From positions 1 through 62,088 of the forward strand of contig JBAZNZ010000011.1 of the NCBI GenBank assembly GCA_041648975.1: 62,088 nt of DNA, in the 5' to 3' direction. Numbering within the stretch: the first letter of the stretch is position 1; each line of letters opens with the position of its first letter. The position numbers and the translations under genes are program-made. This document shows positions 22,593 to 44,092 of the stretch, piece by piece. The notes under the pieces were generated by a model. It saw only the letters and a list, made by a program, of their open reading frames with translations. It did no database searches and was not told the DNA's origin. This stretch comes from Candidatus Omnitrophota bacterium. Its GTDB lineage: Bacteria; Omnitrophota; Gorgyraeia; 2-01-FULL-45-10.

Positions 22593-23535
22593 ATAATGCC
22601 CCCTTTCCAGCCAGTTTCAATACTACTTTGTATAACCCATCCACGACCCTGGACATCCTCTGATAATCCAGCGTTCCATAAGTATCACCTTTGGTGTGCA
22701 TATATGGATTGCGGTATATGCATGTATCGGAAAACCATACCGCTTCATAGCCGAACGTCCAGAAGGCCCGGTTATCGGACGTAACCAACTCAGGAACAAG
22801 CGGCGCGGGCGCGGCCATGTATTCGACAGGCATGTCGGAGGCCTTCTTAAATTCGTCTACGACCTTGCGAAGCAGGTTAGACGACCCCGTCTCTGCGCAT
22901 ATGCCTATAAAATTACCTTTATCCGGGTAGAAGAATTTGAAGATGAGCGGATATTTTTGGGAACCGGGTTCATCGGAATAATAGCCGATCATGTCGATGC
23001 ATAAAACAGCCTCTATATCCTCATGCGTCGCTTTCGCCTCTTTGGCGTACCTGTAGCTGCCCGTATCGGGGTCATCAAACAGGATATCCACCTCTTCATT
23101 CGTAAAAGCGATGAATTTAACCGTCTTGTCCAGGTCTACATCACGCGCCCGCCTGGCCAGTTCCAGGACGGCGGCGACGCCCGAGGCATTATCGTCCGCG
23201 CCCGGGGCCTCGCAGTAAGTGTCGTAGTGGGCGCAGATTATTATTATCTTATCTTTTCTGCCTGAACCTTCTTTGACGGCGATAATATTGCGGTAAGGCT
23301 TATCCCGGAACCCCTTCTTCTGCATATGGTAAGACTGTTCTTCGGGGTCATAACCGTATTTAATGAACTCCTCTTTTATGTAGTCCGCGGCGCGCTGCAG
23401 GCTATCGTAATTGGACGTGTTCCTCTTGCCTATATCCGCCGAGAGGAACTTCACGTGTTCCCGTATCGTATCGCCGGCGTATGCGTCGGATATTATGAAG
23501 AACGCCGCCAGTGTTATCGATAGGATCCGCTTCAT
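22582..23535 (-). CDS. M28-family metallopeptidase (aminopeptidase), secreted
   Basis: Signal peptide MKRILSITLAAFFIISDAYA. Zinc-ligand blocks are CAHYDT, DDNASGVA and FTNEE. Confidence 0.8.
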   Translation of the reverse strand: MKRILSITLAAFFIISDAYAGDTIREHVKFLSADIGKRNTSNYDSLQRAADYIKEEFIKYGYDPEEQSYHMQKKGFRDKPYRNIIAVKEGSGRKDKIIIICAHYDTYCEAPGADDNASGVAAVLELARRARDVDLDKTVKFIAFTNEEVDILFDDPDTGSYRYAKEAKATHEDIEAVLCIDMIGYYSDEPGSQKYPLIFKFFYPDKGNFIGICAETGSSNLLRKVVDEFKKASDMPVEYMAAPAPLVPELVTSDNRAFWTFGYEAVWFSDTCIYRNPYMHTKGDTYGTLDYQRMSRVVDGLYKVVLKLAGKGALYGE

Positions 23536-24023
23536 TTTTTTCGCTTTTTTGAACCCGCCTTCTTCTTCGCGCCGGTATGCCGGGACTCTTCATGCCGGCT
23601 CTTACCAAAATCGCTTACACGAAGATTATCCTGATGCCTGGGCATTTCATCGCGGTGACTTTTGAACGGGCCGCCTGTCTTGCGCTTCGAAAAACATTCT
23701 TTGCAATAGACCGGACGGTCTCCGCTTGGCTTGAAAGGCACCTCGCATCCTTTGCCGCAATCGGCGCAGACCGCTTTATGAAGGGTCCTCTCCCTGAAAT
23801 TCGTATCGCGATTCGCGTCGGAGGGCCGCTGTGAATTGCCGAAATGCTGGAACGGCCTTGGAGCGTGTTCCGCGTTGAAGGGCTTCGCCGCGGGCTTGTT
23901 GATCAACGAGTCTATCTTCTTCTCCAGAAAAACCAGTTGCTGCTGTATCTTGGCCAGCATCTCTGTTATATCCGGCTTGTCCTGCGGCGGAGAATAGCTT
24001 TTGTGTTTCGATTGCTTTTTCAT
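23532..24023 (-). CDS. CxxC-x17-CxxC domain protein
   Basis: 163 aa with CADCGKGCEVPFKPSGDRPVYCKECF and basic tails. It overlaps the M28 gene by 4 bp. Confidence 0.65.
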   Translation of the reverse strand: MKKQSKHKSYSPPQDKPDITEMLAKIQQQLVFLEKKIDSLINKPAAKPFNAEHAPRPFQHFGNSQRPSDANRDTNFRERTLHKAVCADCGKGCEVPFKPSGDRPVYCKECFSKRKTGGPFKSHRDEMPRHQDNLRVSDFGKSRHEESRHTGAKKKAGSKKRKK

Positions 24024-24109
24024 CTTACTCCTTTTTCTCTATATGCCGCTTCTTCGAAAAGCGGCGGTTAGCATTGCCTGTTACGGATATAATTATCTAC
24101 CTTTCTTGC

Positions 24110-24844
24110 TCATATCTTTTCATCCTCTCCGGCGGTATCCTGCAGTTTACCGCGCACGAGGTCTCTCAAAGCCGCAAAATCGGCGATCCGGTAAGACGAC
24201 GTATCGATCGGCGGGAATATCACCAGCCTCCCCGACACTTTCGTCTTGAAGATCCAGCCGCCCTTGGGGATGGCCTCTCTTGTGCCGCCGATAAATACGG
24301 GCAACAGAGGTTTCTTTTCCCGTATGGCCAGCTTAAAAGCGCCGTTCTGGAATTCATTCATGTCGTCCGTGCCGCTGCGCGTGCCTTCCGGGAAGAAGAG
24401 CATGGATACGCCGCTCCTGAGCCGCTCGGCCGCCTGCCTGTAGACCTTTTTTATACTGCCGAATTCTCCCCTGGAAAGCATGATGTGGTCATTGACCCAG
24501 AGCAGCCCGCCGATGAAAGGCAATTTAAGAAGGCTCTTCTTGGCTACCCATTTAAAGTACATGTGCGTCTTATATATGATTATTATATCGGCAAAACTTT
24601 GATGGTTGGCGACGACCACATACGTCTTATTGTGGTCGATATTTTCCAGCCCCTCCACCTTGATCTTCCAAAAGGGGTTCATGGCTACGAGCGCGTCCGC
24701 CCACCAGAAACACTGGGCATGCACAAGCCTTTCCCTGTTGGCGACCTGAAAAGGCATCTTCTTTATGATGAGGCTGGAAAGAAAAGCGGCCGCGGTGATG
24801 ACAACGCCCGCGATCCATATAAGTATCGATATGACGATCTTCAT
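24110..24844 (-). CDS. plsC: 1-acyl-sn-glycerol-3-phosphate acyltransferase
   Basis: 244 aa with an N-terminal TM, the HX4D motif NHQSFAD and the FPEGTRS block. Confidence 0.85.
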   Translation of the reverse strand: MKIVISILIWIAGVVITAAAFLSSLIIKKMPFQVANRERLVHAQCFWWADALVAMNPFWKIKVEGLENIDHNKTYVVVANHQSFADIIIIYKTHMYFKWVAKKSLLKLPFIGGLLWVNDHIMLSRGEFGSIKKVYRQAAERLRSGVSMLFFPEGTRSGTDDMNEFQNGAFKLAIREKKPLLPVFIGGTREAIPKGGWIFKTKVSGRLVIFPPIDTSSYRIADFAALRDLVRGKLQDTAGEDEKI

Positions 24845-24846
24845 TA

Positions 24847-25029
24847 CTATCTCTTCCTGCGGACCTTATCGAATACCTCTTTATTTATAGCCTGCAGATC
24901 TACCGGCTTCCCGGCGGCCTTCAGTTTTTTGACCGTCGCGCGAACCATCAACCGCTTGATCTTCTTCTGCTCCGTTACGCTCTTTTTTCTCTTGCCGAAT
25001 CCGCACTTCTCGCTATAAAGCCCCATCAC
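24847..25029 (-). CDS. small basic hypothetical protein
   Basis: 60 aa and Lys/Arg-rich. It ends 2 nt upstream of plsC. No family was recognised. Confidence 0.35.
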   Translation of the reverse strand: MMGLYSEKCGFGKRKKSVTEQKKIKRLMVRATVKKLKAAGKPVDLQAINKEVFDKVRRKR

Positions 25030-27005: not shown

Positions 27006-28055
27006 TTAAAGAGAAATAATATTTTTCCAATCTTTTTGGATATTATAGGTGGGATGCATTTTGAACTTCAATCGCGCGGATTCGATACTATCACCGACCA
27101 GGCCGGCGAGGGAATAGTCTCCGAACCCTTCCTGCCCCAGGTAATAAAGATACCCTATCTCTTCAGGCTGAAGGCCCATCAATCTGGCTCCGATGCCGTC
27201 GGCCTTCAGGGGATCCGTCGAACAGACAGCGGCATTCAGGTCCACCGGAAAACCGTCCACCGGGCCGTTCCCGTCCATACAGCGAAAGCCGTCCAGCACC
27301 ACAAGATCCGGCCATGTATGGCGCGCGAGTTCAGCCACATTGCGATGGATAACCTTTGTCGCTTTCAGGTATGTAATGGATTTCTTAAATATCAAATTTA
27401 CTAAACCGGGCGCCCTCCGCCTCATCCATGCTATGTAAGAGGTCGGTATATAGGTGAATATCGTCCTGGAGTCGGGGGCGCTTGGCGTGCGCAACCCGTG
27501 AAGGATGGACTTGTCTTCCTGCTTTATCATGCCGGCCATATTCTTGATGCCGAATGTGGCGATGGCGTAATTATGGGTCTTAGGGACGGCTATGGATATA
27601 CGATGATCGAAATCGTAAAAATGTTTTATCACCCTTATCTTCTCGCCCCCGGCGATGGATCTTACATGAAGTTCGGTAAAATCGGAAAAGTCCTCTATGC
27701 ACTCCAGCTTGACGTTCCTGTATTTTTTTATAAGCTCATAATACCCGAATTTGCGGAAGACGTCTCTTGTAGCCGTTTTCTCATAGTAAGCGCTGCCGCT
27801 GCCTTCCAGTATGGTAAACCGGCTGCCGCTTAATTCACTGAAATTATCGAGCAAAAAATCTATTACAGCCTCTACGGCCTTTACGTCGGTATTTGCAAGC
27901 TCATTTTGGGTGGCTGTCAGGTTGGGTTTAATAAGGATATTCTTTTTATTTCTTACGCCCTCAAGGTCGGGCCTTATCAGGCCAAGCGCCTTTATGATAT
28001 TATCATACCTGTTGCCGCCTTTTACCAGAGAGACCTTCTTAAGATCGCCTTCCAT
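27006..28055 (-). CDS. DUF362 domain protein
   Basis: 349 aa. The N-terminal pattern ...VSLVKGGNRYDNIIKALGLI...ILIKPNL matches DUF362 from recall. Confidence 0.6.
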   Translation of the reverse strand: MEGDLKKVSLVKGGNRYDNIIKALGLIRPDLEGVRNKKNILIKPNLTATQNELANTDVKAVEAVIDFLLDNFSELSGSRFTILEGSGSAYYEKTATRDVFRKFGYYELIKKYRNVKLECIEDFSDFTELHVRSIAGGEKIRVIKHFYDFDHRISIAVPKTHNYAIATFGIKNMAGMIKQEDKSILHGLRTPSAPDSRTIFTYIPTSYIAWMRRRAPGLVNLIFKKSITYLKATKVIHRNVAELARHTWPDLVVLDGFRCMDGNGPVDGFPVDLNAAVCSTDPLKADGIGARLMGLQPEEIGYLYYLGQEGFGDYSLAGLVGDSIESARLKFKMHPTYNIQKDWKNIISL

Positions 28056-28094
28056 TTTATTGACTTCCTATTCTGATCGATCCCGCGCTTAAAG

Positions 28095-28133
28095 TTCCAG
28101 GGGACGCGTCATCTTGTGACGCGTCCCCTGGAA
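28095..28133 (-). terminator. strong hairpin, probable operon terminator
   Basis: Perfect 17-bp stem TTCCAGGGGACGCGTCA / TGACGCGTCCCCTGGAA with a 5-nt loop, 35 nt after the stop at 28168. The trailing U-tract is weak (CUUUAA). Confidence 0.5.
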
Positions 28134-28167
28134 TCCTATTACCTATTATCGGTTTTCACGGAATATA

Positions 28168-28413
28168 TTACAGCGTAAATACGGTCTTTTCTATCTTCTG
28201 CTTGGAAAACGCCGCCTTGACCTTATCCACCGAGCCCTGCAGCGCGGTCAGGATCTTCGTGACCTCTTCGGGGGTATATTCGTAACTGGAACCGGCGAGA
28301 TTCGCTATAAGCTCGACCTTGGATATAGCGTTTACCACCCTCTTTGACGCAAGCCGTTTAAATTTGTCGCTTTTGCTTTCACCTGCCACATCTTTTTCTT
28401 CACTCTCCGACAT
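28168..28413 (-). CDS. hypothetical acidic/helical small protein
   Basis: 81 aa with a good SD (AAAGGAGGAG) upstream of the ATG. It is the last ORF before the strong hairpin. No family was recognised. Confidence 0.5.
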   Translation of the reverse strand: MSESEEKDVAGESKSDKFKRLASKRVVNAISKVELIANLAGSSYEYTPEEVTKILTALQGSVDKVKAAFSKQKIEKTVFTL

Positions 28414-28489
28414 ACTTCTCCTCCTTTCATTATTTTGTATCTAGTATACCATAAATTTAGCGTAATTACCCGTAAACATTGAGGGGCAA

Positions 28490-29929
28490 TCAGGCATTTT
28501 TTATGAATATGCGTTTCAGGGAGTTGCCGAGCCTCTTCTTTTTCATTTCTCTTGCTACTACACTTTTTATCAAACGCGGACCTACGGATAAAAACATGAT
28601 GATCTCATTAAAAGTGAAGAATCTCACTATCAGCAGTTTCCTCAATATTTTTAAGACCTGAAGCGGCGTATAGAATGAAAATTTGATCTGCCTTCCTATT
28701 TTTTTTAAAGACGCATGGCTAAAAGTATCTGAATACAATTCGCCTTTTTCGGTAACGTGATAACCCGGCGTATTTTCTGCGACCTTTCTGAGCGGAGAGA
28801 ACTTCTCTATGCGCAACTTCTGGAACGTGATAGAATCAAGGCTTATCTCCTTTGAGAACCTCGCTATATACAACATCTCTTCCTTAGTCTCCTCTATGTT
28901 GCCGTAAATAAAGTAGCCGTGATAGTATATGGGGTATTTTTTCAATACGGCAAAGCATCTTCTTATTTCGGATGAGTCAAAACCTTTATTAAGCTCAGTC
29001 AATATATGGTCGTGCGGGGATTCTATGCCTATGAACAGCATCTTGAAACCCGCCTTCACCATCTTCTCCAATAACCCGGGATGCTTGGATATTTCGATAC
29101 GGGCCTGCGCCATAAAACGTTTTTTTATCTTGCGCGCTATTATCAGGTCGCAAATATCTTCCGACCTTTTTATATCCGTAAAAAAGTTATCGTCGTTGAA
29201 CAGGATGGTGCCGGCGCGTATCTCTCCTATCTCATTCACGACGGATTCAACACTGCGCGCCGCGTAATCTCTTTTTTGGCCAAGTGGATTCAGATTGAAT
29301 GTGCAGAACTTGCAGTTAAAAGGGCAGCCTCTCGCGCTTAAGACCGAGTCGAACGTAAAACCTTCCATGCCGATCCCGTTTATTCTCATGTAATATTTAT
29401 TCCGCCGCAATCGGCGGTCCGGCGAGCCTATGATATCGACATCGGGTAACGGCCTGTTCGCGTTATGGACTATCCCCTGATTTCCCCTGTAGGAGATGCC
29501 CAAAATATCTTCACGCGGTGTACCTTTTAATATCTCTTTTATAGTCTCTTCACCCTCACCCCTGACAATTATATCTATTTTTGGACAGGCTCGAAAAAGT
29601 TCCTCGACCTCTACCGTGGCTTTATACCCTCCTACTATCAGCGGTATATTATCCGGCAGCGTATTCAACAGGCCGCAGATCTCTTCATACTGGCGATCCC
29701 AACCGACGCTGACACATACGATATCGATCTCCTTGCGTATAAAATCGATCAGATTACCGGTATCGCACAGGTCCGTTTCGTATCGCAGGTCGAGAAGAGT
29801 TATTTTATCGGCAAGGCCCTCGGCGCTGGAGGCCACATATTCAAGGCCTGTTGGCGGAAATAGCCCCATTATGCTTGTCGCCGTGTTCTCGATATATGGA
29901 TTCAGGAACAGGGCGTGTTTATATTTCAT
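28490..29929 (-). CDS. B12-binding-domain radical SAM protein (class B, DUF4070-like C-terminus)
   Basis: 479 aa with an N-terminal cobalamin-binding-like fold and the CPFNCKFC (CxxxCxxC) cluster. Its ATG lies inside the last codons of the ABC-F gene (11-bp overlap). Confidence 0.85.
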   Translation of the reverse strand: MKYKHALFLNPYIENTATSIMGLFPPTGLEYVASSAEGLADKITLLDLRYETDLCDTGNLIDFIRKEIDIVCVSVGWDRQYEEICGLLNTLPDNIPLIVGGYKATVEVEELFRACPKIDIIVRGEGEETIKEILKGTPREDILGISYRGNQGIVHNANRPLPDVDIIGSPDRRLRRNKYYMRINGIGMEGFTFDSVLSARGCPFNCKFCTFNLNPLGQKRDYAARSVESVVNEIGEIRAGTILFNDDNFFTDIKRSEDICDLIIARKIKKRFMAQARIEISKHPGLLEKMVKAGFKMLFIGIESPHDHILTELNKGFDSSEIRRCFAVLKKYPIYYHGYFIYGNIEETKEEMLYIARFSKEISLDSITFQKLRIEKFSPLRKVAENTPGYHVTEKGELYSDTFSHASLKKIGRQIKFSFYTPLQVLKILRKLLIVRFFTFNEIIMFLSVGPRLIKSVVAREMKKKRLGNSLKRIFIKNA

Positions 29930-31868
29930 CGCTGAATTTCCGTTTCACGGCGTCATACTCTTTCATCGTCGTATCGAGTCGAGAATAACAGGAGTCGATC
30001 TTATCCGCCAGTTCTTTCAATTCTCTCGAGAGTTCGCTTCTCCGGATGGCTCCGAGGCCGCCTAGTTTAGAAGATTTCGCGAGCTCCTCATTCACGGAAG
30101 CCATCCTTGCCTCGGAAGATACTATCTCATCCTCCAGGCTCTTGATCTTCGCCTCGAGAGGCTTTAAAACCTTCGACTTCATAGCGATAAACTCAGCGCG
30201 GGCCTTGCGAGACATCTTACTATCATGCCCTTTCGGTGCGCGTTCCGGCGGGCTTTTCGGCCCGGTCGATCCTGACAGCCGCTGTTTGGTTTCCGTCGCG
30301 CCGGCCCGGCCGGATGGGGCTTGAGGCTGGACAGGCTTAGATTCCGGATAGCTTTCAGCCTTTGCGGCGGGCGAACCTTCGTCGTCCTCCCATCCGATCC
30401 TGTCCAGGAACTCCCGGTAATTACCCGGATACAGGAATGCCCTGTCGTTCTTGAAGACGATCAGCTTCGTCGCCACTTCGTTCAGGAAATGCTCGTCGTG
30501 CGCCACTACAAGCGCCGCTCCCTCGAAATCCCGCACGGCATCCATCATCGCCTGGCAGGATTCGATGTCAAGATGGTGCGTGGGCTCATCCAGGAAAAGG
30601 ATGTTTGAAGGCGCCGCGAGTATCTTTCCCAACAGAACCCGGCTGCGCTCGCCGCCGGAGAGGACCTTTACCTTCTTCTCGGCGTCGTCTCCGGAAAACA
30701 TCATCGCTCCGCATATCCCGCGCACGCGCGATTTATCTATAAATGCCCTGCCGAGGCATATCTCCTCTTCCACGGTAAGGCCGTCGTTAAGGTCGGCTGT
30801 ATTGGCCTGCTCGTAATAAGCCGGGAGCGCCGCGGTGTGCGTCTTAACGCTGCCACCTACGGGCTTAAGCCGTCCGGAGAGCAATTTTAAGAGCGTCGTC
30901 TTGCCTTTGCCGTTCTTTCCCACGATGCCGATCTTGTCATGCCTGCTCACGATAAAGTTCAGGCCGTTTATGAGGTACGGTTCCTTGCCGTCGTATGAAA
31001 ACGCAAGGTCATTCACATCCATAACCTGCCCGGCGCGGAACGGCTCATAATTGAATGAGAACGACAACGTGCGGATCTCTTCGAGCTTCTCCAGTTTTTC
31101 CATCTTTTCAAGCTTCTTGATGTTCGACTGGACGGTCCTGGCGTGGCTCGCCTTCGAGCGGAACGTGTTCACATACTCCATGATCTGCTTGCGCTTCTTC
31201 TCGTCCTCCAGGCGCCTCTTCTCGTGCACCTCTTCGTCCTTATGAAGCTGCGCGTAATACTTCGCAGTCGACCCTTTCATCTTCCTCACCATGCCGCGAT
31301 GGATACCCACTATATGCGTCGACACGCTATCGACCAGGTCCCTGTCGTGGCTTATCACGATGAGTTCGCCTTTCCACGACCGCAGGAACTTCTCGAGCCA
31401 CCTGATCGAGACTATATCCAGGAAGTTCGTAGGTTCGTCGAGGAGGAGCATGCCGGGTTCGGAGACGAGGGCCTTGGTGAGGGCGATGCGCATCTGGAAC
31501 CCTCCGGAGAATTCCGACGGGCTATGATTGAGATCCTCTTCGCGGAAGCCCAGCCCTGAGAGTATCTTCTCCGCTTTCCATTCGGACCCGATCTCTTCAG
31601 GGCCCAATCCGACGCAGCCTTCTTCCAGCACGGTAGGCTTTGTGAACTTAAGGTGCTGGCCGAGATATCCTATGGAGTAATTCCTGGGCTTAAAGACCTT
31701 GCCCTCGTTGGGCTCCTCTTCGCCGGTGATTATCCTGAAAAGCGTGGTCTTCCCCTGTCCGTTGCGGCCCACGAGCCCGATCTTCTCGCCCGCAAGGACA
31801 TCGAAACTCACGTCGGAGAAGAGCACGCGTGTGCCGTACCGCTTACTGATATTCTTTACTGCTATCAT
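29919..31868 (-). CDS. ABC-F family ATPase (two NBDs, no TMD; Uup/EttA-like) with C-terminal coiled coil
   Basis: 649 aa. NBD1 has GRNGQGKTT / FSGGFQMR / LLLDEPTN. NBD2 has GKNGKGKTT / LSGGERSR / LFLDEPTH. Confidence 0.9.
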   Translation of the reverse strand: MIAVKNISKRYGTRVLFSDVSFDVLAGEKIGLVGRNGQGKTTLFRIITGEEEPNEGKVFKPRNYSIGYLGQHLKFTKPTVLEEGCVGLGPEEIGSEWKAEKILSGLGFREEDLNHSPSEFSGGFQMRIALTKALVSEPGMLLLDEPTNFLDIVSIRWLEKFLRSWKGELIVISHDRDLVDSVSTHIVGIHRGMVRKMKGSTAKYYAQLHKDEEVHEKRRLEDEKKRKQIMEYVNTFRSKASHARTVQSNIKKLEKMEKLEKLEEIRTLSFSFNYEPFRAGQVMDVNDLAFSYDGKEPYLINGLNFIVSRHDKIGIVGKNGKGKTTLLKLLSGRLKPVGGSVKTHTAALPAYYEQANTADLNDGLTVEEEICLGRAFIDKSRVRGICGAMMFSGDDAEKKVKVLSGGERSRVLLGKILAAPSNILFLDEPTHHLDIESCQAMMDAVRDFEGAALVVAHDEHFLNEVATKLIVFKNDRAFLYPGNYREFLDRIGWEDDEGSPAAKAESYPESKPVQPQAPSGRAGATETKQRLSGSTGPKSPPERAPKGHDSKMSRKARAEFIAMKSKVLKPLEAKIKSLEDEIVSSEARMASVNEELAKSSKLGGLGAIRRSELSRELKELADKIDSCYSRLDTTMKEYDAVKRKFSDEI

Positions 31869-32698
31869 CTTTTTCCCCGGTAACGAACTGCTTCATAGAG
31901 GCATATAGCGGAGGCGCTGGCGACATTCAGCGAATCGATCGTCTTTGAGATAGGGATGCGGACCTCGGCGTCGGCGATATTCAATACCTGGCGCGATACT
32001 CCTTTATCCTCGTTGCCGAAGACAAAACAGATATTGCCGGAGAGCCCGGCCTTGGCGATATCGTCCGTGCCTTTGTCGGGAGTGGCGGCGATTATACGTA
32101 TATCAAATTTTTTCTTAAGCCTGACAAGGCTTGAAGCCAGGCCGCGTTCATAGCAGACCGGCAGCCTGAAGATAGCGCCCATCGAGACGCGAACGGCTTT
32201 CCGGTAATACGGATCGTATGTCTCGTTATCGACTATAAGCGCCTGGACCCCGAACGCGGCCGCGTTACGCGCTATGAGCCCGACATTCTGCGGGTCATTT
32301 ACGGCATTCAGCGCGACGAGGAATAACGGGCGCCTGAGAGTTTCCACCGTATTGGCGACTGTAAGTTTTTTGGGGCAATACCCAATGGCCATGATACCCT
32401 TATGAAAACGAAAACCTATGATCTCCTCTATCAACTTATCGGCCGCAACGTAAGTAGCGGCTCCTTTCGAAGCCATCATAGCAAGGAGTCCCTTGTATCT
32501 GGGGACCGTTCCTCTGGCCGTAAGGCATGACGCTATCCGGCATCCGCTCTGGACCATGCTGTTAACTACCTTCTCCCCTTCAGCTATAAAGATACCTTCC
32601 TTTTCCAGCTGTTTTCCCTTAAGAGAGCGGTATGACGCCAGGCGCGGATCATCCGCGTCCTGTATAGAGATAAAAGTCGACCTTGGTTTAGCTGTCAT
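31865..32698 (-). CDS. TrmH/SpoU-family RNA 2'-O-methyltransferase (RlmB-like)
   Basis: 277 aa with C-terminal SPOUT blocks GNEDKGVS and IPI...DSLNVASA..I.LYE. It shares an ATGA stop/start overlap with the ABC-F gene. Confidence 0.8.
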   Translation of the reverse strand: MTAKPRSTFISIQDADDPRLASYRSLKGKQLEKEGIFIAEGEKVVNSMVQSGCRIASCLTARGTVPRYKGLLAMMASKGAATYVAADKLIEEIIGFRFHKGIMAIGYCPKKLTVANTVETLRRPLFLVALNAVNDPQNVGLIARNAAAFGVQALIVDNETYDPYYRKAVRVSMGAIFRLPVCYERGLASSLVRLKKKFDIRIIAATPDKGTDDIAKAGLSGNICFVFGNEDKGVSRQVLNIADAEVRIPISKTIDSLNVASASAICLYEAVRYRGKR

Positions 32699-32731
32699 TT
32701 TCCGGTGCTTCCTTTCCGTTGCATTTTATAT

Positions 32732-32760
32732 ATTATACTTCCAAACAGCATATATGTAAA
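32732..32760 (-). promoter_or_regulatory. sigma70-like promoter for the trmH/ABC-F/rSAM operon
   Basis: Minus strand reads TTTACA (32760-32755), a 17-nt spacer, then TATAAT (32737-32732), about 35 nt upstream of the ATG at 32698. Confidence 0.6.
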
Positions 32761-32826
32761 GTCATCATAACTTGTTCAAGTCTTAATCACTTTACTTATG
32801 GTCTGTTTTGGTATAAGATTTATTAT

Positions 32827-33663
32827 ATGGAAGTGAAAAATTGTTATAATTGCGGATCTTCTGACCACCTATTTTACGCTGAGGAGAATGGCTTTAACCT
32901 GGTGAAATGCGCCGGATGCGGCTTATTATTCGTAAAGAACCGTCCGGATGACGATCAAATATCCCAGGCGCATAAACAGGGCAAACATGGCGGCGTAAAC
33001 ACATTTGACATGACCGGCAATTTTGATAATAGCAAAATATCAAAATATTTAAATATTCTTGACGACATGTTTAAGGGGAATCTGGGAAATAAAACAACGT
33101 GGCTTGACATCGGTTGCGGACACGGCGAGTTCATAATGGCTGTTCAAAAATACAGCTATGGAAAAATTACCGCTACAGGGACGGAGCCGAATATCAAAAA
33201 ACAGGGGTCAGCGCGCAGGAGAGGCTTGAACGTCGGCTATTTCGATATAGACTCCCATAGCGAAAAGTACGATGTCGTATCAATGTTGAATGTATATTCA
33301 CATCTTCCCAACCCTCCTTCATTTATCAGGTCTGCGCGAAAATTATTGAAAAAGGGCGGCGAGCTTATTTTAGAGACAGGAGATACCGCAAATTTTTCCG
33401 CGGCGGATCACTATAAGCCTTTCTTTCTGCCGGATCACTTGAGCTTCGCATCCGAAAAGATCGTTGTGAATATACTGGAGCGCATGGATTTTGAGATCTT
33501 AAGCGTACAGAAATACCCCCTCATAGGATGCGGTTTAGGCACTATTGCCAAAGAACTTATTAAAGCCCTGCTGCCCAAACATAAGTCCCGGATATGGTCG
33601 TGTTTCAGGCAAAAAATGTATTCAAAAGCAGACATGTTTATACGGAGCGGATTAAAGGATTAG
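32827..33663 (+). CDS. class I SAM-dependent methyltransferase with N-terminal zinc ribbon
   Basis: From the ATG at 32827 it reads MEVKNCYNCGS...KCAGCG, then motif I DIGCGHG. The track ORF starts at an upstream TTG at 32719. Confidence 0.75.
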   Translation: MEVKNCYNCGSSDHLFYAEENGFNLVKCAGCGLLFVKNRPDDDQISQAHKQGKHGGVNTFDMTGNFDNSKISKYLNILDDMFKGNLGNKTTWLDIGCGHGEFIMAVQKYSYGKITATGTEPNIKKQGSARRRGLNVGYFDIDSHSEKYDVVSMLNVYSHLPNPPSFIRSARKLLKKGGELILETGDTANFSAADHYKPFFLPDHLSFASEKIVVNILERMDFEILSVQKYPLIGCGLGTIAKELIKALLPKHKSRIWSCFRQKMYSKADMFIRSGLKD

Positions 33664-42189: not shown

Positions 42190-42218
42190 TTGACCTCGAA
42201 ATGATCAAAGGGTATAAT
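42190..42218 (+). promoter_or_regulatory. sigma70-like promoter for the ABC exporter gene
   Basis: TTGACC (42190-42195), a 17-nt spacer, then TATAAT (42213-42218). Confidence 0.6.
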
Positions 42219-42256: not shown

Positions 42257-44092
42257 TTGCGATTTCAACGACCAAACATTAAAATACTGTCCAGCCTACT
42301 CGCAGCATGGGACTTACTCCAGAAAACCGGCGTAAGTGTCTATTATCTTATAATCTCATCAATCCTCGCGATAGTTTCCAGCATTTTTGAAGGCATCAGC
42401 GCGATCACTCTTATACCATTATTAAACGGGGTAATACATGTAGATTTTAGTTTCACTAAAGAAAATAAAGCATTTTCTTATCTTATTTATATATTTTCCG
42501 GCAATCTCAACCTTTCCAATACCGCTATATTCATAATCCTTTTAGTAATCGTTTTCCTATCGGCTGTGTTAAAAAATATTTTCCAATATCTCTCCGCTTT
42601 GAGTTTTTCATATTTTTCGTGGCAGTCAATTAATAAGTTACGTACGTCTATTTTTGACCGCTATCTCTCATTCGGAAAATTATTTTATGACCGATCAAGC
42701 GCGGGATACCTCCAAACTGTTATGCTGGATTATACAAACCAAATTTCCCAGAGGATGCTGCAAGCAAACGTAGCGTTGACTCAAATATTTCTGCTTGTCA
42801 TATACTCTATTTTAATGATTTTCATATCATGGAAACTTACGTTAGTTATAATTATTATCTCCCCATTTTTTTACTTTGGCTCGCAATGGCTTATTGTAAA
42901 GATCAAGAAAAACTCCAACGCTTATACCGAATTTTACGCAGCTATGAGCCGCAAGCTGCAAAATGTTCTTTCCTGCATTCCGTTGGTTAAAGTCTATAAC
43001 AACGAAGATGGAGAAAATAGGGATTTCATTCGCATAAATAATATTACTACAAAACTCGAGTTCGGCCTCGACAAGAAGTATTACCTGATCTTCCCCTTGC
43101 AGGAAGTAATCATGCTCTTTGTCATACTCCTTTTGGTATCCGCGATAGCTTTTATGGCGGCGAGGGGAAAACGCGACCTGGGTGAATTCCTTGTGTATTT
43201 CTATGTTTTAAAAAAATCCGTAACTGCAATAGGAGGGTTAAATACTTTCAGGGGATATATTTCAACGATAGACGGCCCTATTTCCGATATAATGAAAATG
43301 TTTGACAATAAAGATAAGTTCTTCGTATCAGACGGCTCGGAAGAATTTACCGGGCTTAAAGAAACTATCAGATTTAACCATTTGAAATTCTCTTATTTTG
43401 GTAACGAGAAAATGGTCCTGGAAAATATTAATTTTTCTATTAAGAATGGCTCTCTCACGGCGATAGTAGGTGAGACAGGAGCCGGCAAGACGACCCTGAT
43501 AAACCTCCTTTTACGATTTTATGATTGTCCCCCATCGACTATTCTCATTGACAATGTAGACATTAGAAAATTTAGCACGAAATCTCTCATGTCCCATATG
43601 GCGCTAGTATCGCAGGAAGGATTGATATTCAACGATACTATACGGAACAACATAGTATACGGCTTGAAGGAGAAGGTGTCCGATAAAGACTTGAACGAGG
43701 CTATCGCGAAAGCTCGCCTAAGCAATTTTATCAACAGCCTCCCCGCCGGCCTGGATACGGTTATAGGTGACCGTGGCGTGAGGCTTTCAGGCGGCGAAAA
43801 ACAGCGCCTCGCGATCGCAAGAATGCTTCTTAAGCCCGCGGACATAATCATCCTTGATGAAGCAACTAATGCACTGGATACGCAGACTGAAAAATTGATC
43901 GAGGAATCAATTTCAGAGTTGATAAAAAGTAGAACGGCGATCGTGATCGCCCATAGACTGTCCACCATAAAAAATGCCGACAAAATCGTAGTTATACAAA
44001 ATAAAATATTGGCAGAAGAAGGCACATTGTCAGAATTGTTGGAAAGGAAAGGCGCGTTTTACCAATATTGGCAAGCACAAAAATTTTATTGA
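42257..44092 (+). CDS. ABC exporter, fused TMD-NBD (MsbA/PglK-like lipid or lipid-linked-glycan flippase)
   Basis: 611 aa with a 6-TM domain followed by GETGAGKTT, LSGGEKQR and IIILDEAT. The only in-frame start near the 5' end is the TTG at 42257. Confidence 0.85.
   Translation: MRFQRPNIKILSSLLAAWDLLQKTGVSVYYLIISSILAIVSSIFEGISAITLIPLLNGVIHVDFSFTKENKAFSYLIYIFSGNLNLSNTAIFIILLVIVFLSAVLKNIFQYLSALSFSYFSWQSINKLRTSIFDRYLSFGKLFYDRSSAGYLQTVMLDYTNQISQRMLQANVALTQIFLLVIYSILMIFISWKLTLVIIIISPFFYFGSQWLIVKIKKNSNAYTEFYAAMSRKLQNVLSCIPLVKVYNNEDGENRDFIRINNITTKLEFGLDKKYYLIFPLQEVIMLFVILLLVSAIAFMAARGKRDLGEFLVYFYVLKKSVTAIGGLNTFRGYISTIDGPISDIMKMFDNKDKFFVSDGSEEFTGLKETIRFNHLKFSYFGNEKMVLENINFSIKNGSLTAIVGETGAGKTTLINLLLRFYDCPPSTILIDNVDIRKFSTKSLMSHMALVSQEGLIFNDTIRNNIVYGLKEKVSDKDLNEAIAKARLSNFINSLPAGLDTVIGDRGVRLSGGEKQRLAIARMLLKPADIIILDEATNALDTQTEKLIEESISELIKSRTAIVIAHRLSTIKNADKIVVIQNKILAEEGTLSELLERKGAFYQYWQAQKFY

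Follow-up and report, generated by a model that had tools for sequence, protein, structure and literature searches.

On its minus strand, a stretch of DNA of 62,088 nucleotides from a Candidatus Omnitrophota bacterium (assembly GCA_041648975.1, contig JBAZNZ010000011.1), referred to here as the window, carries four neighbouring genes that encode a SpoU/TrmH-family methyltransferase, an ABC-F protein, a class B radical S-adenosylmethionine enzyme (rSAM), and an 81-residue protein (orf81). A preliminary description of the locus had proposed that the rSAM is hard-wired to the two ribosome-directed proteins encoded beside it, as a modification or protection module. The survey of gene neighbourhoods of rSAM homologues, which had been set beforehand as the test of this proposal, largely refutes the module as it was stated: linkage of the rSAM gene to the SpoU and ABC-F genes is not conserved. 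What recurs across the phylum is a looser arrangement, in which an ABC-F or a DEAD-box ATPase gene of changing identity lies next to the rSAM gene. We regard the four genes, at somewhat short of an even chance, as a lineage-specific housekeeping operon rather than a dedicated four-gene module, and a role of the rSAM in translation or ribosome biogenesis as possible but doubtful, this role being drawn entirely from gene neighbourhoods.

Recurrent ATPase neighbours of the radical SAM gene

Loci with an orthologue of the rSAM gene were taken from 13 related genomes, 80 species genomes, and 80 metagenome contigs, and the removal of 14 duplicate rows left 148 distinct loci. When all open reading frames (ORFs) in 82 loci were clustered without preselection, a DEAD-box RNA helicase ranked first among the neighbours (15 loci) and an ABC-F protein second (9 loci). 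An ABC-F gene lies at most 1.3 kb from the rSAM gene in 15 of the 148 loci, with seven state changes on the rSAM tree, and a DEAD-box helicase gene in 17 with nine state changes; one or the other is present in 32 loci, with 16 state changes, and both together in none. Where at least 2 kb of flank is available on both sides, the corresponding count is 21 of 76 loci. The ABC-F proteins encoded next to the rSAM fall into three subfamilies with 27–37% mutual identity, namely the type found in the window (type A), a YbiT-like type (665 bits to PRK15064), and a Uup-like type (716–792 bits to the Uup model). Their genes are located upstream or downstream of the rSAM gene at spacings ranging from overlap to about 500 bp, and the gap between a DEAD-box gene and the rSAM gene is 8–12 bp in four loci. 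Within the clade of the window itself, the slot directly upstream of the rSAM gene is occupied by the type A ABC-F gene in six rows, by a Uup-like ABC-F gene in L117, and by a DEAD-box gene together with a Zn-ribbon gene in L118.

The refilling of one slot by non-orthologous genes of one functional kind argues for a functional or regulatory tie, inherited gene order alone being insufficient to produce it. A genome that has one to four ABC-F genes and about 1700 genes in all should by chance give far fewer than one adjacency per several dozen independent arrangements; this is a rough estimate rather than a formal test, and loci that are related do not count as independent. Among 120 places of paralogous rSAM genes in 41 genomes, none lies near an ABC-F gene, a single one being on the same contig at a distance of 36 kb. 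No other neighbour within 1.3 kb exceeds six loci: response regulators (a very large family) are found in six, PlsC in five, RecG in five, patatin in three, and FabF in two. Of the tie between a class B radical SAM enzyme and ribosome-directed proteins that had been put forward for the window, the general part gains support from the ABC-F and DEAD-box neighbours and the specific SpoU/ABC-F module does not.

Several RNA-linked genes recur near the rSAM gene, among them those for a CxxC-x17-CxxC Zn-ribbon protein, a cold-shock protein, Dus, YchF, and SpoU. The Zn-ribbon protein (TIGR04272) is encoded beside the rSAM, ABC-F, or DEAD-box gene in L083, L088, L151, L118, L065, and L089, and the window has a Zn-ribbon gene of its own on the minus strand at 23532–24023, 4.5 kb downstream of the rSAM gene.

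Conservation of the four-gene set

Adjacency of the window-type ABC-F gene was found in 8 of the 148 rSAM loci and presence of the SpoU gene in six, all of these cases being confined to one clade of 16 rows with rSAM identities of at least 80%. In this clade the SpoU–ABC-F pair sits directly upstream of the orphan rSAM gene (order SpoU–ABC-F–rSAM) in the window, G014, L044, and L126; the order is ABC-F–rSAM in L036 and L120, and rSAM–SpoU–ABC-F in L037 and L116. Both the SpoU and the ABC-F gene are missing around the nearest orthologue whose flanks are complete (L034, 87% identity). The hard-wiring of the rSAM to both partners thus fails for want of conserved linkage. Of the 13 relatives with both a SpoU and an ABC-F gene, 6 have the two side by side. 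In G022, a genome of 95% completeness without an rSAM orthologue, the order is YjbQ–SpoU–ABC-F–RsmE (L115, contig C57, 1265–5452), with the 16S rRNA methyltransferase RsmE encoded where the window has the rSAM.

Presence and absence of the genes in 41 relatives show no tight coupling either. The rSAM gene is found in 14 of these genomes, the window-type ABC-F gene in 18, and both in nine, while the SpoU gene was detected in 16 and accompanies the rSAM gene in seven. Four genomes, which are 99, 96, 90, and 75% complete, have the rSAM gene with no ABC-F gene detected. The ABC-F protein is not an obligatory substrate or partner of the rSAM, because near-complete genomes that have the enzyme lack a detectable ABC-F.

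The radical SAM enzyme

Judged by its domains, a B12-binding domain (PF02310, 43.9 bits) and a Radical_SAM domain (PF04055, 55.8 bits) identified with Pfam, the rSAM is a class B radical SAM enzyme whose orthogroup is found across Omnitrophota. Orthologues of 52–88% identity are widespread in this phylum, and a few occur in metagenome-assembled genomes labelled Planctomycetes, Kiritimatiellia, or Deltaproteobacteria. The motif C202-x3-C206-x2-C209 is invariant in 43 of 43 aligned orthologues, which have a mean column identity of 74%, and C260 is the sole invariant cysteine outside it. No claim is made for an auxiliary cluster; C72, C85, and C115 are conserved but not invariant. None of 2450 homologues bears a functional name, and none of the 24 NCBIfam matches of the rSAM reaches its cut-off, the best being HpnJ (124.9 against 577.6) and BchE (112.2 against 481), so that the enzyme falls outside the named class B families (HpnJ, BchE, HpnR, PhpK, MgmA, and others); RlmN and Cfr are absent from these 24.

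A Foldseek search with an AlphaFold2 (AF2) model of the rSAM (predicted local distance difference test, pLDDT, 88) returned MgmA (9ccb), TsrM (6wte), AprD4 (6fd2), OxsB (5ul4), CysS (9n1b), and TokK (7kdx) with TM-scores of 0.6–0.7 and E values of 1e-15 to 5e-21, and the model superposes on TsrM, MgmA, OxsB, and TokK. All six solved class B structures agree with the rSAM in their domain order, in which a B12-binding domain of Rossmann type at the N-terminus precedes the partial barrel of radical SAM enzymes, with its CxxxCxxC motif, and a helical C-terminal part, but they have only about 15% identity to it. The fold match of the predicted structure confirms the class of the enzyme and not its function. 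AprD4, one of the top matches, is a diol dehydratase according to its PDB title and NCBIfam name, and the class B fold is therefore no proof that the rSAM methylates its substrate. A prediction of the complex of the rSAM with residues 1–500 of the ABC-F protein gave a score of 0.00, which is not informative either way.

The genome from which the window derives measures 1.8 Mb at 95% completeness and has six paralogous class B rSAM genes besides the one studied here. Four of the six paralogues are clustered at about 23.8–42.2 kb of contig C3 (G000), and a fifth is located at about 100 kb of the same contig. The C-terminal tail of the rSAM is very basic (isoelectric point, pI, 11.7). Its charge was dropped as an argument, five of the six paralogues having similar tails and a similar overall pI.

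A possible role in translation and its alternative

The known substrates of class B radical SAM enzymes are antibiotics, lipids, cofactors, peptides, and a single archaeal enzyme (MCR), and C-methylation is the commonest outcome within the class. The rSAM probably performs radical chemistry with its B12-type domain. If the recurrent pairing is functional, its substrate would most likely belong to the translation apparatus, either an RNA (rRNA or tRNA) or a protein of the ribosome or of translation, and might be handled during ribosome assembly. This substrate is proposed because an ABC-F or DEAD-box ATPase repeatedly fills the slot beside the rSAM across the phylum. In a bolder version, which on present evidence seems unlikely, the rSAM would be the first member of class B shown to modify the translation apparatus, most simply by adding a C-methyl group, and would gain access during ribosome assembly or rescue through whichever ATPase is encoded next to it. 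DEAD-box helicases are known as ribosome-assembly and cold-adaptation factors. In Escherichia coli, a bipA mutant has a cold-sensitive defect in 50S assembly that is suppressed by the ABC-F protein Uup (PMC6723617), and it is therefore plausible that ABC-F proteins and cold-active helicases share a setting in ribosome assembly.

A literature search yielded no report that links class B radical SAM enzymes with ABC-F, DEAD-box, or rRNA genes, and the main text of a classification of ABC-F proteins (Murina et al. 2019) contains the terms 'radical SAM', 'operon', and 'methyltransferase' zero times. Among the solved class B enzymes named above, we know of none reported to be linked genomically to translation factors. 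RlmN and Cfr are class A radical SAM methylases of A2503 in 23S rRNA, and to our knowledge rRNA is not established as a target of any other radical SAM methylase, nor is any other radical SAM gene established to act on one ribosomal region together with ABC-F genes. In clinical isolates such genes are sometimes carried together with ABC-F resistance genes such as optrA and poxtA. RlmN and Cfr differ from the rSAM of the window in lacking a B12 domain, in belonging to another class, and in showing no sequence match to it, and those genes are mobile resistance genes, whereas the genes of the window are single-copy and chromosomal.

The alternative is that no functional link exists. The substrate of the rSAM would then be a lipid of the envelope, a glycan, or some small molecule, and its placement would stem from decaying ancestral synteny or from the co-expression of housekeeping genes linked to growth in a compact genome. 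This explanation has a considerable probability, though below one half, and is nearly as likely as the translation-linked one. It accords with the heavy turnover of the neighbourhoods, in which 1017 ORFs form 692 clusters and the immediate neighbours are heterogeneous, with the routine occurrence of overlapping genes in the window, and with the existence of the rSAM without ABC-F and of ABC-F without the rSAM. Genes for PlsC, the fab cluster, patatin, and GT2 recur near the rSAM gene, and in NCBIfam the rSAM resembles most closely, though weakly, two lipid enzymes, HpnJ and HpnR, as well as BchE. In the window, a PlsC gene is located 3.6 kb downstream of the rSAM gene and a glycan locus (33.9–47.5 kb) begins 1.2 kb upstream of the operon. 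A further point is a fused form of the enzyme, P0241, a public protein of 876 residues from a high-GC source, 47% identical to the rSAM with its motifs kept, in which a MobA-like NTP transferase domain follows at the C-terminus. The fusion may suggest that the substrate is activated by a nucleotide, or that the enzyme is concerned with small molecules or with the chemistry or supply of a cofactor; it is a single record of ambiguous meaning. The MobA-like domain family also includes a guanylyltransferase of the cobamide pathway, and no MobA-like NTP transferase gene was found near the rSAM in 162 loci searched with tblastn.

An absence of any link is, in turn, difficult to reconcile with the finding that three non-orthologous ABC-F subfamilies and DEAD-box helicases fill the slot beside the rSAM gene in either orientation and across many clades, and that three ATPase types alternate within a single clade whose identity is at least 80%. 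By the same 1.3-kb criterion, lipid and glycan genes are three to eight times rarer as neighbours, and the paralogous rSAM genes show no ABC-F adjacency. A role in translation nevertheless has its own body of counterevidence. Neither an ABC-F nor a DEAD-box gene is found within 1.3 kb in 116 of the 148 loci, most immediate neighbours are unrelated (among them GAPDH, MoxR, patatin, GT2, HD domain proteins, and PEPCK), and an outgroup clade of 11 rows with 52–56% identity shows no association with ABC-F or DEAD-box genes. Lipid genes do recur, PlsC in the five loci counted above and, at distances of up to 7 kb, a fab cluster in about six, and the rSAM gene of the window is itself placed between a glycan locus and a PlsC gene. 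The dependence among related loci and the roughness of the chance estimate reduce the weight of the adjacency counts; the structural match is class-level at about 15% identity, the basic C-terminal tail is common to the paralogues of the glycan locus and does not discriminate, and the one fused form found points elsewhere. Finally, we know of no class B radical SAM enzyme that acts on RNA or the ribosome, so that the prior is low.

Should the pairing prove functional, it would indicate that a large uncultured phylum modifies its translation machinery, under anaerobic conditions, in a way not yet described, and it would supply a concrete enzyme for testing. Should it not, the locus teaches caution, as overlaps between genes and a bracket from promoter to hairpin do not make a module in compact genomes.

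Organisation of the locus

The four genes, their overlaps, a near-consensus promoter, and a 17-bp hairpin are all present at the coordinates at which they had first been described:

31865–32698, minus strand, SpoU/TrmH-family gene, 277 residues (ORF and Pfam)
29919–31868, minus strand, ABC-F gene, 649 residues (ORF and Pfam)
28490–29929, minus strand, class B radical SAM gene, 479 residues (ORF and Pfam)
28168–28413, minus strand, orf81, 81 residues (ORF; no Pfam match)
32732–32760, minus strand, putative sigma-70-like promoter TTTACA-17-TATAAT, 11 of 12 consensus matches, the function being predicted
28443–28451, minus strand, candidate extended -10 element (TGgTATACT) of a separate orf81 promoter, read by eye from the sequence
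28095–28133, minus strand, perfect 17-bp stem-loop 3' of orf81 (sequence and folding)

The SpoU and ABC-F genes overlap by 4 bp in a shared ATGA and the ABC-F and rSAM genes by 11 bp, whereas a gap of 76 bp separates the rSAM gene from orf81, which has its own strong Shine-Dalgarno sequence, AAAGGAGGAG. The start/stop overlaps on which translational coupling of the first three genes had been based are thus real, but they are not special: the window has a coding density of 92%, and overlaps are found in 17 of its 49 adjacent same-strand gene pairs, one further pair of unrelated genes overlapping by 11 bp as well. Overlaps are therefore a weak sign of functional coupling. An Rfam search of positions 27500–33500 gave no match at E <= 1. 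From 1 to 41.9 kb the plus strand has one convincing gene, which encodes a methyltransferase, at about 32827–33663. A long plus-strand ORF at 24074–25018 is the shadow of a real minus-strand gene, that of the PlsC-type acyltransferase (24110–24844).

Transcription of the SpoU, ABC-F, and rSAM genes would start together at the sigma-70-like promoter and end at or near the hairpin. The TTTACA-17-TATAAT site is the top-scoring promoter-like site of the region and sits in the 128-bp intergenic region from which the SpoU gene and the methyltransferase gene of the plus strand diverge. With a divergent gene on its upstream side, SpoU must have a promoter within these 128 bp. Sites with at most one mismatch to the consensus occur twice in the window, against 0.36 expected, and both fall in its only two divergent intergenic regions, 5' of SpoU and 5' of a plus-strand ABC exporter gene, so that the position of the promoter appears meaningful. 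The second of them, TTGACC-17-TATAAT, is located on the plus strand at 42190–42218, ahead of the exporter gene at 42257–44092. The two near-consensus sites suggest that the organism uses promoters like those of E. coli. The candidate extended -10 element at 28443–28451 was not listed by the promoter scan of the region.

The 91-nt segment with the hairpin folds at -45.9 kcal/mol (z = -9.0). The sequence is unique in the genome, and the stem-loop lies 40 bp ahead of the following gene (DUF362). The hairpin has no T-run, or U-tract in the transcript, and the terminator scan of the region did not call it as an intrinsic terminator; nor is it among the 25 of 42 inverted-repeat pairs listed by a repeat search, its identification coming from sequence and folding. 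The hairpin is likely to be a transcript end or a stabiliser.

The SpoU methyltransferase and the ABC-F protein

The SpoU product matches the SpoU_methylase domain (PF00588) with 126.7 bits against a cut-off of 29.7 (E 1e-36), and it is the single PF00588 match of the genome in a profile search. It is predicted to be an RNA 2'-O-methyltransferase of the RlmB/RrmA-like group, its nearest PDB entries being the 23S rRNA methyltransferases RlmB (1gz0) and RrmA (1ipa), with which it shares the SPOUT catalytic domain. An N-terminal substrate-binding domain (L30e-like in RlmB) is matched weakly, at 19.7 against a cut-off of 27 for the MRM3-like domain in Pfam, and the score for the RlmB (23S Gm2251) equivalog in NCBIfam falls below its cut-off (TIGR00186, 119.5 against 160).

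The ABC-F protein comprises two nucleotide-binding domains (NBDs; 2x ABC_tran, PF00005), the PtIM linker (ABC_tran_Xtn, PF12848), and a C-terminal extension of about 150 residues, with no transmembrane domain. The twin NBDs, the PF12848 linker, and the lack of a membrane domain are common to EttA, Uup, YbiT, and YheS, and a C-terminal extension is also present in Uup and YheS. Since no model of a named subfamily reaches its cut-off, which sets it apart from these housekeeping proteins (YbiT-type 339/762, EttA 337/807, Uup 309/900, YheS-type 292/917), the ABC-F protein is classed by its profile scores as a distinct subfamily, which in the search of related genomes occurs mainly in one Omnitrophota family. 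It passes the generic model NF000355 'ribosomal protection-like ABC-F' (408.5 against 380). The PDB entries rank in the order YbiT, YheS, EttA, Uup, then PoxtA and other antibiotic resistance (ARE) types, the best at 220–270 bits. The operon protein is the genome's single PF12848 match, the sole other twin-NBD protein being a GguA/XylG sugar-transport ATPase. In two relatives the gene appears altered: the orthologue on contig C54 of G007 (L023/L037) lies in two frames, covering residues 1–151 and 156–647, and that of L044 stops at 498 residues, without the C-terminal extension; both the split and the shortening may reflect frameshift, decay, or assembly error.

These two proteins bear on the suggestion that the locus protects the ribosome, an antibiotic self-resistance module in which SpoU would methylate rRNA, the ABC-F protein would displace the drug, and the rSAM would add a Cfr-like methyl group. 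All three families do include resistance members (NshR/TsnR, ARE ABC-F proteins, and Cfr, as is generally known), and the cut-off of NF000355 is passed, but this function is very improbable. Every resistance-specific model falls far short of its cut-off: the NshR/TsnR thiopeptide-resistance model gives 49.7 against 425 for SpoU, and for the ABC-F protein all ARE models (Vga, Msr, Lsa, Sal, OptrA, CplR, and producer-type) give 169–288 bits against cut-offs of 680–1450, as in Vga 288/725, Msr 281/680, Lsa 209/750, OptrA 248/1450, and producer type 219/800. The PDB ranking favours housekeeping ABC-F proteins, no leader region precedes the ABC-F gene since its start overlaps SpoU, and the 62-kb window showed no gene cluster for the biosynthesis of a compound that targets the ribosome. 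The rSAM, moreover, belongs to class B and lacks a match to Cfr or RlmN among its NCBIfam hits. With SpoU and ABC-F as the genome's only copies, the resistance models unreached, and no room for a leader, the protection reading of the preliminary description is not supported; the sole-copy status and the housekeeping type of the ABC-F protein point to housekeeping, not antibiotic protection.

The small protein orf81

The product of orf81 had been described as acidic and without a Cys- or Gly-rich core. It does lack cysteine, but with a pI of 8.9 overall and 14 Lys and Arg against 12 Asp and Glu it is acidic only in an N-terminal stretch. Its AF2 model consists of two long helices at low confidence (pLDDT 64). 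The protein belongs to a highly conserved family of Omnitrophota, whose homologues form 200 clusters at E <= 0.001; the 120 listed are 79–99% identical over the 81 residues, and none of these has a Pfam domain. For orf81 itself there is no match in Pfam or NCBIfam, matches to PHROGs are weak only, and those in a protein atlas are unnamed clusters.

The position of orf81 directly downstream of the rSAM gene, at 76 bp in the window and at 348 bp in L113 (a 66% orthologue), raises the question of a pair akin to those that make ribosomally synthesised and post-translationally modified peptides (RiPPs), or of some other pairing of an enzyme with a partner, in which orf81 would serve as the substrate or as a chaperone. 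Some class B radical SAM enzymes do modify peptides, and ApyD and rSAM_ocin_1 are among the weak NCBIfam matches of the rSAM. Such a pair is nonetheless highly improbable, and its earlier rejection is upheld: Pfam finds neither a SPASM domain nor a RiPP recognition element in the rSAM, orf81 has no cysteine and has its own Shine-Dalgarno sequence and candidate promoter, and the two genes lie near each other in only 3 of the 148 loci. Unlike a precursor peptide, orf81 is more conserved than the enzyme (at least 79% identity among the 120 listed of 200 clusters). Because of this stronger conservation, orf81 is regarded as an independent small gene, probably a unit of its own rather than a partner of the rSAM, and its conservation suggests an abundant structural or nucleic-acid-associated protein.

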